Assembly (NCBI GenBank): GCA_019090225.1
Contig: JAHRWI010000172.1
Span: forward strand, 1 to 53,310
DNA from: Porticoccaceae bacterium
GTDB lineage: Bacteria > Pseudomonadota > Gammaproteobacteria > Pseudomonadales > Porticoccaceae
Direction of reading: 5' to 3'
Length of the DNA: 53,310 nt
Every line of letters starts with the position of its first letter. Within the stretch, counting starts at the first letter, position 1. The position numbers and the translations under genes were made by a program. Below, piece after piece: positions 25,641 through 27,131 of this stretch. The notes below the pieces were generated by a model. It ran no database searches, was not told where the DNA came from, and worked only from the letters and a program-made list of their open reading frames with translations.

Positions 25641-27131
25641 TTGGGCACCGCAATTATCGAATTAAACGACAGCGCCATTCAGTGTCTACATGGTGAAACA
25701 TTGCTGGTTATGCCGGGCTATGCCCTGCTCACCGATCAGGGCGTTGTCACTGGGGATGAAGCCCTGCAAAAAGCCTGGTTATTGCCCCAGCAAAGCCATA
25801 ATCAATACTGGCATCAACTCAGCCTATCCCCACTCACCGGCGCAAACCGTTATGCGCGGCATCACGCTGATCTCGCCTATGCTCAGCTGCAAAGCCTGTA
25901 TCACGAAGCCGGCAAACCGGAAAATATTATTTTCGCGGTACCCGGAAACTTCACCAATGATCAGCTGAGTATATTATTGGGCCTGGTAAAAGCCTCACCT
26001 TTCAAGGCCACTGGCCTGGTGGATAGCGCGGTCGCAGCTGCTTGCCAAGCTGATACTACGGGTGACGTAATCCATGTCGATATCCAGCTACACAGCTCGG
26101 TGATTACCCGGCTCGAATGTGGCGCTCAGATAACCCGCCTCCACAGCGGACAATATCCCGACGTATCTCTACAAGGTTTTTACGATACCTGGGCACACTT
26201 CATCGCCGATAAATTCATCAGTCAATACCGTTACGATCCGATGCACACAGCCCAGGGTGAACAGCAGCTGCGTAATCTCTTACCCTTGTGGCTAGAACAA
26301 CTGACCAGCGAAGAGGAAATCGAAATAGACATATCTGCTCAGCAGGGTAATTTCAGGCTTAATATTCTGCGTGTTGAACTGCTTGCCGCCAACAGCCAGC
26401 GTTGGCAACGTCTGGCCGACGCCCTGGCCAGTATCACGGCCAAAGATGGTCAGGCGGACACCCTATTGATCAGCCATCGTCTTATGGCCCTGCCCGGCGT
26501 CGATAACTATATTGAATACTCCGACTATTCAGAGCCGGACGCCGTGCTAAGCGCCTGCCAGACTCAGGCTAAACACATTGTTTCAGACAGTGACAAATTA
26601 TCTTTTGTTACTGAATTACCTCTGCTTGGTGCCACACTCCCAGGTGGAGACAAATCAGCTGAACTGGCTATACCTCGGCAAACCCCAGGCCAAAACCTTA
26701 AACCGCAAAGCTCTAAACCACAAAATCTGAAATCCAGAAGTCTCGAATCTCAAAACACGGTACCTGGCAGATCAAGATCACCCGAAGCCCTTTCCCAACA
26801 GCCTGGCAAGACCGAAACCGTCCCACCCATCAGGCCTGCAAAACATCAAGCACCAAGCCATTTGCTCCATCAACACCAAGCCCATGCTTTAAAGCAAGGC
26901 TTAAGTATTACCATGGGGTTACGGGGCCTGGAAATTAAGGCCTGTGAAAGCACCGATAAACCTGAGCAACAGGCCGGTCAACTCTTAATCAATTACCAGG
27001 CGCAAAAAGTCGTGCTCCACACCGATCAGAATAAACTGCCCATTCAATGTAGCGGCAATCTCGACAAGCTCCAGGTCGGCGATGAAATCATTATCCGCGG
27101 TGAGACCCTGAAGTTTATCGAGGTGCTCTGA
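25641..27131 (+). CDS. cytoplasmic Hsp70/actin-fold (ASKHA)-like protein with degenerate nucleotide motifs and a C-terminal FHA-like beta domain
   Basis: 496 aa. TTG start with GGAG 6 nt upstream. Hsp70-like segments: IIELNDSAIQC, FAVPGNFTNDQLSILLGLVKASPFKATGLVDSAVAAA (compare VPAYF..QR.A...A..AGL.V..II.EPTAAA), VIHVDIQLHSSVI and TLLISHRLMALPGV. Low-complexity Q/K/S/P linker. The tail LQVGDEIIIRGETLKFIEV is FHA-like. No TM or signal peptide. Confidence 0.5.
   Translation: MGTAIIELNDSAIQCLHGETLLVMPGYALLTDQGVVTGDEALQKAWLLPQQSHNQYWHQLSLSPLTGANRYARHHADLAYAQLQSLYHEAGKPENIIFAVPGNFTNDQLSILLGLVKASPFKATGLVDSAVAAACQADTTGDVIHVDIQLHSSVITRLECGAQITRLHSGQYPDVSLQGFYDTWAHFIADKFISQYRYDPMHTAQGEQQLRNLLPLWLEQLTSEEEIEIDISAQQGNFRLNILRVELLAANSQRWQRLADALASITAKDGQADTLLISHRLMALPGVDNYIEYSDYSEPDAVLSACQTQAKHIVSDSDKLSFVTELPLLGATLPGGDKSAELAIPRQTPGQNLKPQSSKPQNLKSRSLESQNTVPGRSRSPEALSQQPGKTETVPPIRPAKHQAPSHLLHQHQAHALKQGLSITMGLRGLEIKACESTDKPEQQAGQLLINYQAQKVVLHTDQNKLPIQCSGNLDKLQVGDEIIIRGETLKFIEVL

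Follow-up and report, generated by a model that had tools for sequence, protein, structure and literature searches.

MotAB/ExbBD/TolQR-type motors supply the power for flagella, gliding, nutrient import and the integrity of the envelope, as well as for some phage defences, and an Asp in a transmembrane (TM) helix is typical of their TolR/ExbD/MotB members. To our knowledge, cytoplasmic control is known for only a few of these motors. With regard to the locus described here, the described relatives are the TPH-vWA clusters: the main text of [quoted passage not shown] (2025; PMC12204202) predicts that a TolQ-like protein and its TPH-vWA partners form a proton-driven 5:2 motor. Its passages on these clusters mention no Hsp70-like, FHA, PEGA or FGE component ("hsp70", "fge" and "pega" each have 0 occurrences in the main text), and the supplements may show such a gene as an unnamed neighbor.

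The stretch of DNA analyzed here (the window, 53,310 nucleotides from a Porticoccaceae bacterium, contig JAHRWI010000172.1) contains a cluster with this layout: a TolQ-like gene comes first, then a heterologous pair of genes for membrane proteins with an Asp-bearing helix, and none of the cluster ORFs scanned matches the TolR/ExbD family. A vWA domain is detected in the first protein of the pair; the second, in which Pfam finds no vWA domain, gives weak cross-matches to the first. What distinguishes the window is an Hsp70-like gene inserted between the TolQ-like and vWA genes (Table 1). A defence system was considered as another identity for the locus and set aside. PADLOC gave only a chance-level ZorA match to the TolQ-like protein, and the known Hsp70-containing conflict systems are GTPase-centred and come from actinobacteria and firmicutes (PMC7159879; "MotA" has 0 occurrences in its main text).

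Table 1. Features of the Hsp70-like/FHA gene and of its neighbors in the cluster (positions in the window).
Feature	Position	Strand	Basis and remarks
TPR protein, bitopic, cytoplasmic N-terminal tail	20677..22209	+	Pfam TPR; TM residues 41-59; 65/79 loci
Motif IEASDV, tail of the TPR protein, related to the PEGA-FGE motif	20707..20724	+	regex match
PEGA x5 + FGE-sulfatase-fold protein (PEGA-FGE), bitopic, cytoplasmic N-terminal tail	22191..24314	+	Pfam; TM segment residues 53-71; alternative ATG start 22209; 73/79 loci
Motif AIDFEP ([PA]..[FY].P), tail of the PEGA-FGE protein	22281..22298	+	candidate docking site for the Hsp70-like protein
TolQ/MotA/ExbB-like channel gene, upstream neighbor	24707..25504	+	Pfam MotA_ExbB, 2e-15; adjoins the Hsp70-like gene in 77/79 loci
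Shine-Dalgarno-like GGAG	25631..25634	+	6 nt 5' of the TTG start; read from sequence
Hsp70-like/FHA gene	25641..27131	+	496 aa, TTG start; ORF listing and translation
Residues 1-333, divergent Hsp70-type nucleotide-binding-domain (ASKHA) fold, no Gly-rich phosphate/adenosine loops	25641..26639	+	model, fold matches, hhalign
Residues 334-401, disordered Q/K/S/P-rich linker	26640..26843	+	pLDDT <50 at 335-401; gapped alignment
Residues 402-496, degenerate FHA-fold domain	26844..27128	+	domain model pLDDT 87.3; fold search
Stop TGA of the Hsp70-like gene	27129..27131	+	1 nt ahead of the ATG (27133) of the first vWA gene; read from sequence
First vWA protein, N-terminal TM helix with Asp (..FLDIMACGFG..)	27133..28203	+	Pfam VWA_2; 78/79 loci
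Second, paralogous membrane protein, same Asp-bearing helix (..FLDVISCGFG..)	28194..29183	+	77/79 loci

Is this a genuine gene? The ORF is real and conserved, since its many homologues (320 with E ≤ 1e-3 in a scored set of 8000 candidates and, under the same threshold, 1367 clusters formed at 50% identity) and a near-invariant synteny in 79 loci argue against a chance reading frame. The TTG start is supported by the GGAG upstream of it and by the N-termini of the homologues, which align residue for residue. All of the segments quoted in the original prediction are found in the translation: IIELNDSA at residues 5-12, FAVPGNF...AVAAA at 98-134, VIHVDIQLHSSVI at 143-155, LLISHRLMALPGV at 275-287, and the C-terminal end LQVGDEIIIRGETLKFIEVL. 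That prediction also had the gene ending 1 nt before the first vWA gene, exactly as the sequence reads, and saw in its product the sole predicted cytoplasmic member of the cluster. A simple 19-residue Kyte-Doolittle hydropathy scan, which is not a dedicated signal-peptide predictor, agrees: this is the only ORF of 13 that has no hydrophobic segment, with a maximum of 1.36, and the other 12 all reach at least 1.6.

The position of the gene is constant. In all 79 loci, apart from losses at contig ends, the TolQ-like gene precedes it and the vWA gene follows it, and the order TolQ-like, Hsp70-like, vWA is also kept in two distant genomes. At the same time, the gene is a lineage-specific insert, an accessory that is absent from many related clusters. 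In a sample of 401 genomes from the phylum, an orthologue of the TolQ-like protein is present in 20 and the Hsp70-like gene in 3; in some related clusters the vWA gene comes directly after the TolQ-like gene, and some others carry an Hsp70-like version that has no FHA tail. The protein is also the least conserved of the cluster, with 28-31% identity where the TolQ-like protein has 62-67%. A cultured strain that carries the complete cluster is on record, Porticoccus litoralis DSM 25064 (locus L042).

As for the N-terminal domain, the Hsp70-like fold that had been proposed is borne out by the predicted structure. The AF2 model of the whole protein has a mean pLDDT of 84.7, with residues 1-333 mostly above 90. 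Foldseek recovered the Hsp70 fold from this model: all 50 matches listed are Hsp70 proteins, mostly structures of the nucleotide-binding domain (NBD), with E-values of ∼1e-16 to 1e-14. VIA-align superposes the model on Hsp70 with Z-scores of 27.8-29.9 and rmsd values of 2.4-3.7 over 312-329 residues. A wide VIA search, which is independent of Foldseek, ranks the Hsp70 representatives (Z 27.1-28.3; 308-329 aligned residues) above MreB (24.3; 280 residues) and actin (23.0), followed by MamK (21.0), ParM (∼19-20) and PilM-PilN (15.2-16.9). The Hsp70 substrate-binding beta-sandwich and helical lid are absent; in their place come disorder at residues 335-401 and an FHA fold at 402-496.

In sequence, the relation to Hsp70 is detected by profile-profile comparison only, and this with a deeper profile on both sides. 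When 251 family members are compared with 28 DnaK/HscA NBDs, hhalign returns a probability of 93% (local) or 97% (global), versus 0.1% for the reversed control; a 43-member alignment against a single DnaK sequence also stays at 0.1%. Pfam gives no family at E ≤ 1 for the window protein, and HSP70 (PF00012) matches 0 of 43 members at E ≤ 0.01. With the whole protein there is nothing in NCBIfam or PADLOC and no Hsp70 by phmmer against the PDB, and hmmsearch of the family profile against the PDB finds no Hsp70 and chance-level AmphB matches only. A side observation, to be taken as a lead only, comes from the ESM Atlas, in which unnamed clusters score 0.96-0.97 and clusters of Hsp70 and MreB 0.88-0.89.

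The nucleotide loops of Hsp70 follow the motifs DxGTT (phosphate-1), DLGGGT (phosphate-2) and GG (adenosine). Four segments of the protein had been set against Hsp70 landmarks, and hhalign reproduces three of these alignments, pairing VPGNF...VDSAVAAA with VPAYF...NEPTAAA, DIQLHS with DLGGGT, and LISHR with LVGGQ. The fourth, the phosphate-1 hairpin, is left unaligned by hhalign; it reads ELNDS and is placed solely via the first beta-hairpin of the model. That the Gly-rich loops are replaced proves correct well beyond the window, because no family member inspected has a glycine-rich loop, and none of the orthologues shown in the family alignments has one at the phosphate-1, phosphate-2 or adenosine position.

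Some polar residues are nevertheless strongly retained. By hhalign, D128 falls opposite the Hsp70 catalytic Glu and D147 opposite the phosphate-2 Asp. In the close subfamily (n = 251, the proteins of 400-530 aa taken for the conservation profile out of 262), E7, D10, D128, D147, H151, R197, E207 and Q208 are nearly invariant, and because the first five of these are so well kept, a ligand-binding or even catalytic pocket may exist. Among class-wide orthologues, the phosphate-1 Asp10 is replaced by S or N and the phosphate-2 Asp147 by E or G.

The Q/K/S/P low-complexity linker that had been described is present in the translation, with a pLDDT below 50, and its length differs among homologues, as the gaps in the alignment reveal. 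A recent repeat expansion was considered as its origin and discarded, since the DNA contains no tandem repeat. Beyond the linker, the suggestion of an FHA-like tail stands as well: the predicted structure of the C-domain has the FHA beta-sandwich fold, and FHA domains occupy 49 of the best 50 rows of the wide VIA search (Z 4.2-6.9, rmsd 2.9-4.7, 61-86 of 97 residues), although these Z-scores are middling and the best Foldseek E-value is 0.02.

The FHA residues that bind phosphothreonine are Gly-Arg, Ser-x-x-His and Asn. Three orthologues (loci L148, L150 and L153; Pfam-positive genomes G623, G419 and G700) match Pfam FHA (PF00498) with 49.1, 44.4 and 46.5 bits, above its cut-off of 20.7, and these canonical orthologues show ..LGR.., ..SRxH.. 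and ..NG.. at the aligned positions. In the sequence alignment with them, the window protein and its close relatives have other residues or gaps there. For the window C-domain, Pfam gives 0 families at E ≤ 5, and the domain is unmatched in the whole-genome FHA scan; some orthologues weakly match Pfam Yop-YscD_cpl. Of the C-termini of the family, 40 of the 78 available were used, with loci that have X residues, truncations or a long tail omitted (L011, L037, L055, L066, L054).

Another question concerns the partners of the protein, and the cytoplasmic tails of the two bitopic proteins of the cluster offer candidates. With regular expressions written post hoc, from the very sequences then counted, the PEGA-FGE motif is found in the tails of 71 of 76 clusters with the Hsp70-like gene and in 0 of 9 without it (shuffled tails, 3%), and the TPR-tail motif in 46 of 72 and 0 of 9, respectively (shuffled tails, 1%). 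Tails were counted only when the TM segment and the N-terminus lie inside the locus, which left 87 for PEGA-FGE and 81 for TPR. On a quick tree of the TolQ-like proteins, only about three changes of state are enough to account for the pattern, so that the co-occurrence rests on few independent events. The PEGA-FGE motif is also found in 2 of 2 clusters whose Hsp70-like version lacks the FHA tail; if docking does take place there, the part that binds it may therefore be the NBD and not the FHA fold. The variable position of this motif is Thr in many orthologues (F-T-P) and Glu in the window. A phosphosite or phosphomimic (T, S, E) was considered for it, an idea weakened by the V, K, R, A, Q or I found there in other orthologues.

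Relatives offer further hints. In six of them an FHA-like domain is fused to the N-terminus of the PEGA-FGE protein in place of the motif, and three of these six have no Hsp70-like gene. The fused domain aligns with the C-domain of the Hsp70-like protein by hhalign (85%, E 5.9e-6), and its best PDB profile match is an FHA domain at a borderline E of 0.008; the link between the two domains rests on these matches, since the C-domain profile barely scores against the fused domains by hmmsearch (2-6 bits). A search for Ser/Thr kinases that might serve an FHA domain, as the original prediction had proposed, found 2 above the Pfam cut-off in the source genome, and one fused to the TPR protein in G623 and in G419, both of the canonical-FHA relatives with a readable TPR gene. 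The cluster of the window has no kinase or phosphatase gene; a PTP-like ORF at 16670-17284 was considered as its phosphatase and rejected, because it is adjacent but conserved in just 1 of 79 loci. Finally, the cytoplasmic loop of the TolQ-like protein was considered as a candidate docking site; it reads ..LPEDxRxxSRP.. in clusters with the Hsp70-like gene and ..GPEDTRxL.. in close clusters without it; both versions are conserved, and the difference is subtle and may simply follow phylogeny.

What, then, could this protein do? The reading tentatively preferred, to which slightly less than an even chance is given, is that the protein serves the motor complex from the cytoplasm as an adaptor or regulator without catalytic activity. 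Within a conserved envelope cluster of 12-13 genes it would be the sole subunit in the cytoplasm; the core of that cluster is made up of the TolQ-like channel and the two membrane proteins with an Asp-bearing TM helix, the first with a detected vWA domain. Its three parts, a very divergent Hsp70 NBD without the glycine loops for the ATP phosphates, a flexible linker and an FHA fold without the phosphothreonine-binding residues, may allow it to dock on the conserved short motif that the PEGA-FGE and TPR proteins carry in their N-terminal tails, and perhaps on the cytoplasmic face of the TolQ-like pentamer as well. As an outcome of this docking, the motor would be assembled, positioned or gated. 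Each of these physical contacts, like the regulatory role, is something we infer; what is observed are the folds with their degenerate motifs, the conserved order and accessory status of the gene, its co-occurrence with the tail motif and the fusions in relatives. In some relatives the module is probably switched by a cluster-encoded Ser/Thr kinase through a canonical FHA domain, and in the source organism the contact is probably phospho-independent. The earlier idea of a "regulator or clutch", drawn by analogy, has to accommodate the accessory status of the gene.

A bolder version of the adaptor reading, and a rather unlikely one, is that the protein is a new cytoplasmic partner of a 5:2 ion-driven motor. 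By clamping the PEGA-FGE and TPR tails onto the TolQ-like pentamer it would determine if the motor turns or passes force on, and Thr phosphorylation would switch the clamp in the relatives that have a TPR-fused kinase and a canonical FHA domain. If true, such a switched clamp would make this a phospho-regulated proton-motive-force machine.

The retained acidic residues raise the question of whether the protein is instead an active Hsp70-type ATPase or chaperone whose nucleotide site is unusual, and which would spend ATP on assembling or remodelling the envelope complex or on unfolding the cytoplasmic tails of the membrane proteins it works with. No fold is closer than that of the Hsp70 NBD, D128 and D147 occupy the places described above, and E7, D10, D147, H151, R197, E207 and Q208 hardly vary among the 251 close members. 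However, the absence of a glycine-rich phosphate or adenosine loop from every member, the change of D10 and D147 to S, N, G or E across class-wide orthologues, the missing substrate-binding domain and the 0 of 43 members matching Pfam HSP70 make an ATPase improbable. The same fold could also belong to an actin/MreB-like polymer, a cytoplasmic track or anchor that would hold or move the motor complexes. The matches to MreB, actin, MamK and ParM are good ones, and the Myxococcus gliding motor works with MreB, which is named in PMC11761067; but the Hsp70 representatives lie 3-4 Z units higher, they align over more residues than MreB does, and the profile-profile match is to the Hsp70 NBD. A polymer is very doubtful.

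The FHA fold of the tail, for its part, is what a phospho-dependent signalling adaptor would need in this organism too: a Hanks kinase from another part of the genome would phosphorylate a partner Thr, and the tail would read it. The two kinases of the source genome, the Pfam-positive FHA domains of G623, G419 and G700, the TPR-fused kinase in the first two of these and the Thr in many PEGA-FGE tails are all in line with such a circuit. Against them stand the window C-domain, which lacks a Pfam FHA match as well as the Arg, Ser-x-x-His and Asn of the canonical orthologues, the cluster without a kinase or phosphatase (the adjacent PTP-like ORF being conserved in just 1 of 79 loci), and a motif position that accepts E, Q, V, K, R and A and is Glu in the window; phospho-reading here has a small chance at best. 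Could the gene simply be a passenger with no part in the machine of the cluster? Many related clusters work without it, and it encodes the fastest-evolving protein of the set. Even so, in 79 loci and across families it keeps its place after the TolQ-like gene and before the vWA gene, a gap of 1 nt separates it from the vWA gene, and its presence co-varies with the tail motif of the partners, so that a passenger is hardly credible.

Why does the adaptor reading matter? The TolQ-like/vWA cluster is a predicted member of the motor group, here with a dedicated cytoplasmic protein, and the uncharacterised Hsp70-like/FHA protein may act as an inside-the-cell adaptor of a little-known envelope machine that is predicted to be proton-driven. 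The pattern in which the gene goes with the tail motif, an FHA domain is fused to the partner when the gene is absent, and a kinase appears in some relatives yields concrete binding hypotheses. The protein is also a clear case of an Hsp70 NBD that has been stripped of its nucleotide loops and yet is still under selection. In the literature searched, no description was found of an Hsp70-like domain followed by a linker and an FHA domain.

Among known proteins, the N-terminal domain is most akin to the Hsp70 NBD of DnaK and HscA. It shares the four-subdomain ASKHA fold (Z 27-30, rmsd 2.4-3.7), and both the VPxxF...xD/ExxAAA segment and the DP...QxL helix are recognisable by hhalign. The top representative is the atypical Ssz1 of the ribosome-associated complex, which binds ATP and is not known to need its hydrolysis. 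Unlike Hsp70, the protein has no Pfam HSP70 match and no Gly-rich loops, and a disordered linker and an FHA fold take the place of the substrate-binding domain and lid.

The C-domain has the beta-sandwich of FHA domains, above all of the non-canonical cytoplasmic ones that belong to secretion and motility machines, such as GltG of Agl-Glt, YscD, PrgH and MxiG of type III secretion, and EssC of type VII secretion. Its matches include YscD (4a0e, Z 5.1), a Salmonella type III secretion system protein (4g2s, Z 4.9), EssC (5fwh, Z 4.4) and MxiG (4a4y, Z 4.3). In the Agl-Glt machine, GltG is predicted to have its FHA domain at the cytoplasmic face of AglR, a TolQ-like pentamer (PMC11761067), which by analogy would be a precedent for an FHA-fold protein at this face of a motor. 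Unlike GltG and YscD, the FHA fold here belongs to a soluble protein and is tethered to an Hsp70-like domain, with no fusion to a TM helix; the six relatives in which an FHA-like domain precedes the TM helix of the PEGA-FGE protein show the GltG/YscD arrangement.

PilM-PilN, FtsA-FtsN and GspL/EpsL provide another comparison: in these pairs, a cytoplasmic ASKHA-fold protein holds a bitopic membrane protein by its short cytoplasmic N-terminus. Here too, the bitopic partners carry the tail motif only where the ASKHA protein is present. The fold match to PilM-PilN is much weaker than that to Hsp70, and this analogy would be a functional one only. The cluster as a whole is built like the TPH-vWA clusters of PMC12204202 (main text), with a TolQ-like gene, no TolR/ExbD match and a heterologous Asp-helix pair whose first member has the detected vWA domain.

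Between the TolQ-like and first vWA genes lies a gene for a soluble protein in which a degenerate Hsp70 nucleotide-binding domain is joined to a degenerate FHA fold. The gene has a fixed position, hard against the vWA gene, and its presence is accompanied by a tail motif in two proteins of the same cluster, the PEGA-FGE and TPR proteins. The frame comes from a mechanical ORF list, and all segments quoted in the original prediction were recovered in its translation. The TTG start, preceded by a GGAG, coincides in position with the starts of aligned homologues, mostly Met there; the TGA (27129-27131) is separated from the ATG of the vWA gene by the single base expected. 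As anticipated for the cytoplasmic member of the cluster, the protein has no hydrophobic segment (maximum 1.36) in a simple Kyte-Doolittle hydropathy scan, used rather than a signal-peptide predictor, and such a segment is present in each of the 12 other cluster ORFs.

The gene is real and conserved. Among 8000 scored candidates from a large protein collection, 320 homologues were found at E<=1e-3, unnamed or hypothetical and none with a precomputed Pfam domain; in a representative library, 1367 clusters were matched at E<=1e-3, 503 of them at E<=1e-30. The named sources are Porticoccaceae, Cellvibrionales, Pseudohongiella and unclassified Gammaproteobacteria. The protein diverges faster than its partners, with 28-31% identity vs 62-67% for the TolQ-like protein and 50% for the first vWA protein.

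Seventy-nine loci, taken from species-representative genomes, show the gene in the same co-directional cluster. By Pfam assignment, the genes run TPR+TonB_C, a pair of lipoprotein-like ORFs, the TPR protein, the PEGA x5 + FGE-sulfatase protein, a 97-aa ORF, TolQ-like, the Hsp70-like gene, the first vWA, a second membrane-protein gene paralogous to it and a further two lipoprotein-like ORFs, often with an M48 peptidase gene. Neighbour conservation runs from 78/79 (vWA) and 77/79 (TolQ-like) down to 53/79 (97-aa ORF), many of the missing neighbours falling at contig ends. Just upstream (16670-17284) is a PTP/DSP-phosphatase-like ORF whose N-terminus resembles a signal sequence; it is probably unrelated, because it is conserved beside the cluster in 1/79 loci only. 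The full cluster also occurs in two metagenome bins titled 'Klebsiella pneumoniae' (loci L064, CAMBTO010000004.1, and L065, CAMDWI010000021.1); their TolQ-like proteins group with class-level relatives, and the label looks doubtful.

The AlphaFold2 model of the protein (43 homologues, mean pLDDT 84.7) is mostly above 90 at residues 1-333 and below 50 at 335-401. The proposed Hsp70-like fold is borne out by Foldseek, in which 50/50 listed matches are Hsp70 proteins, mostly nucleotide-binding domains (E about 1e-16 to 1e-14); VIA-align against the top chains gave Z 27.8-29.9 and rmsd 2.4-3.7 over 312-329 residues. A fold search independent of Foldseek placed six Hsp70-family representatives on top (Z 27.1-28.3), the atypical Ssz1 first, ahead of MreB (24.3), actin (23.0), ParM (about 19-20), FtsA (17.7-18.6) and PilM (15.2-16.9). 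Ordinary profile methods did not detect the Hsp70 relation of this domain; hhalign of 251 family members vs 28 DnaK/HscA domains drawn from whole genomes gave 93% locally (263 columns) and 97% globally (317 columns), with 0.1% for a reversed-template control. Its pairings are those originally proposed: VPGNFTNDQ...LVDSAVAAA with VPAYFNDSQ...INEPTAAA, VDIQLHSS with YDLGGGTF (phosphate-2) and LLISHRLMALP with ILVGGQTRMP (adenosine). Only phosphate-1 was left unaligned by hhalign; in the model, the segment forms the first beta-hairpin (strands 3-7 and 13-17), its position in Hsp70.

The glycine-rich loops, described as replaced, are indeed absent from all orthologues inspected. Calling the site eroded should not mean that it is drifting, because several polar residues are nearly invariant among 251 close-subfamily sequences: E7, D10, W57, R73, H74, D77, D128, D147, H151, R197, D199, P200, H202, E207, Q208 and R280. 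Acidic and His residues are retained in the cleft, where members of the close subfamily may bind a ligand. Across class-wide orthologues the phosphate-loop residues vary (D10 to S/N, D147 to E/G), and ADLAY, LLLG, LVD.AVAA and RFDP.H.A..EQ.L are kept; as a pattern, this agrees better with a conserved interaction surface than with a conserved catalytic site. Of four defining features of the Hsp70 family the domain lacks three; it is related to that family in structure and, remotely, in sequence, without being a member.

For the C-terminal domain, residues 400-496 modelled alone reached pLDDT 87.3 (41 sequences from related loci). Foldseek returned nearly all FHA domains, weakly (best E 0.02); in a wide VIA search FHA domains made up 49/50 top rows (Z 4.2-6.9, rmsd 2.9-4.7), values that the tool itself notes as middling; what counts is how uniform the list is. 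Among these matches are the FHA-like cytoplasmic domains of YscD, MxiG and EssC. The FHA-like reading of the tail gains independent backing from full-length class-level orthologues, which score 44.4 (L150), 46.5 (L153) and 49.1 bits (L148) against Pfam FHA (cut-off 20.7 bits). When aligned, these three carry ..LGR.. or ..LGS.., ..SRxH.. and ..NG/NN.. at the sites that typically bind phosphothreonine; different residues or gaps occupy those sites in the window protein and its near relatives. No Pfam family matches the window domain at E<=5, and none matches any of 43 close members. With the fold in place and neither profile match nor binding motifs, it is an FHA fold lacking the usual phosphothreonine-binding residues.

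Coordinates of the features discussed (L-prefixed positions belong to the locus named; others to the window)
Feature	Position	Strand	Remark
TPR tail motif	20707-20724		IEASDV
PEGA-FGE tail motif	22281-22298		AIDFEP
Shine-Dalgarno-like GGAG	25631-25634	+	6 nt ahead of TTG
Hsp70-like/FHA ORF	25641-27131	+	496 aa, TTG start
303-308-aa short version	L154:7336-8262	+	equivalents in L155, L156
Extra PEGA-FGE domain	L141:3924-4241
Extra PEGA-FGE domain	L149:3919-4239
Extra PEGA-FGE domain	L150:3770-4099
Extra PEGA-FGE domain	L153:9244-9600	-
Extra PEGA-FGE domain	L167:9203-9535	-
Extra PEGA-FGE domain	L168:3700-4050
Kinase-TPR gene	L150:1290-3776	+	Pkinase
Kinase-TPR gene	L153:9619-12048	-	Pkinase

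The gene is accessory, limited to part of the cluster family. In a phylum sample of 401 genomes, a TolQ-like orthologue occurs in 20 (E<=1e-20) and the Hsp70-like gene in 3 (E<=1e-5); in four fully read clusters of this sample the vWA gene directly follows the TolQ-like gene. A class sample of 400 scored genomes has 36 with a TolQ-like orthologue. Loci from the best 30 of these show the gene between TolQ-like and vWA genes in 14 (the window and genome G435 included), vWA directly after TolQ-like in 10, other contexts in 3 and, in the small genomes G448, G701 and G780, a 303-308-aa gene in its place. The short proteins match the family profile with 39-54 bits (E 9e-13 to 2e-8, Z=1e6; profile positions 77-220) and have no FHA tail. 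A quick TolQ-like tree separates one distant clade of 11 rows, none with the gene, from another of 37 rows, in which a gene-less clade of 7 and the 3 short-version clusters arise from within the gene-bearing ones; about three changes of state are enough for this distribution.

What might such a protein recognize? In gene-bearing clusters the bitopic PEGA-FGE protein has a short motif in its cytoplasmic N-terminal tail, typically I.P(I/V)(D/A)F.P(L/I/V), which reads LEAIDFEPIG in the window. The PEGA-FGE ORF of the window may start either at TTG 22191 (19-nt overlap with the TPR gene) or at the ATG within a TAATG where stop and start overlap (22207-22211), and the motif sits downstream of both. 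The pattern [PA]..[FY].P occurs in 71/76 tails with the gene, 0/9 without it and 2/2 with the short version, and by inspection is missing in two further gene-less clusters. A related TPR tail motif, I.(P/A).(D/E)(I/V).L(T/S), occurs in 46/72 clusters with the gene and 0/9 without. Shuffled tails match at 3% and 1%, respectively; both expressions were composed after viewing these same sequences, and the tree implies few independent events behind the contrast, so that the co-occurrence is a lead, not a proof.

Our proposal is that the protein has no catalytic role and instead serves in the cytoplasm as an adaptor or regulator, where it would bind the PEGA-FGE and TPR tails. Two observations count against it: the acidic and His residues that the close subfamily keeps in the cleft, and the faster divergence of the protein compared with its partners. 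Since the motif is kept where the FHA tail is lacking, the Hsp70-like domain, and not the FHA, may be what reads it; the sequences hint at this. The hold of PilM on PilN is a parallel for a tail read by an Hsp70-like domain. The protein might perhaps also dock on the TolQ-like pentamer from the cytoplasmic side: for the gliding machine of Myxococcus, a 2025 modelling paper (PMC11761067) predicts the GltG FHA domain on the AglR cytoplasmic face.

Relatives show that PEGA-FGE can instead carry the FHA module as a fusion. The motif is lacking in three of the five exceptions among gene-bearing clusters (L149, L150, L153) and in all three readable close gene-less clusters (L141, L167, L168), and these six have an extra ~110-aa N-terminal, cytoplasmic PEGA-FGE domain before the transmembrane helix. 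The six are mutually homologous (blastp E 4e-36 to 9e-3); their profile matches the C-domain of the Hsp70-like family (hhalign, 85% probability, E 5.9e-6, 44 columns), FHA domains head its PDB matches, with borderline E (0.008-0.05), and one of the six scores 15.3 bits against Pfam FHA, below cut-off. In L150 and L153, the two canonical-FHA orthologues with a readable TPR gene, the TPR protein has an N-terminal Hanks-type kinase (Pkinase E 1.5e-27, 3.9e-29), and in such kinase-bearing relatives the FHA is probably phospho-dependent. That of the window protein probably is not. This genome does hold Ser/Thr kinases (two above cut-off) as well as two canonical FHA proteins, each on a contig other than the window's. 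On one such contig of this genome (G000, C102; L161, L165) the best Hanks kinase and the best canonical FHA protein are ~3 kb apart, which looks like a separate kinase-FHA module.

In a literature search of main texts, largely outside subscription journals, no description of this architecture or component was found. The Hsp70-containing conflict systems of PMC7159879 differ in context. In the part of PMC12204202 (2025) available, no Hsp70-like, FHA, PEGA or FGE component is mentioned. The system around the protein matches the TolQ-like/TPH-vWA scheme predicted there: each vWA-pair protein opens with a short tail, basic in character, followed by a helix FLD(I/V)..CGFGA, and it is predicted that such pairs serve as TolR-like dimers to a TolQ-like pentamer.
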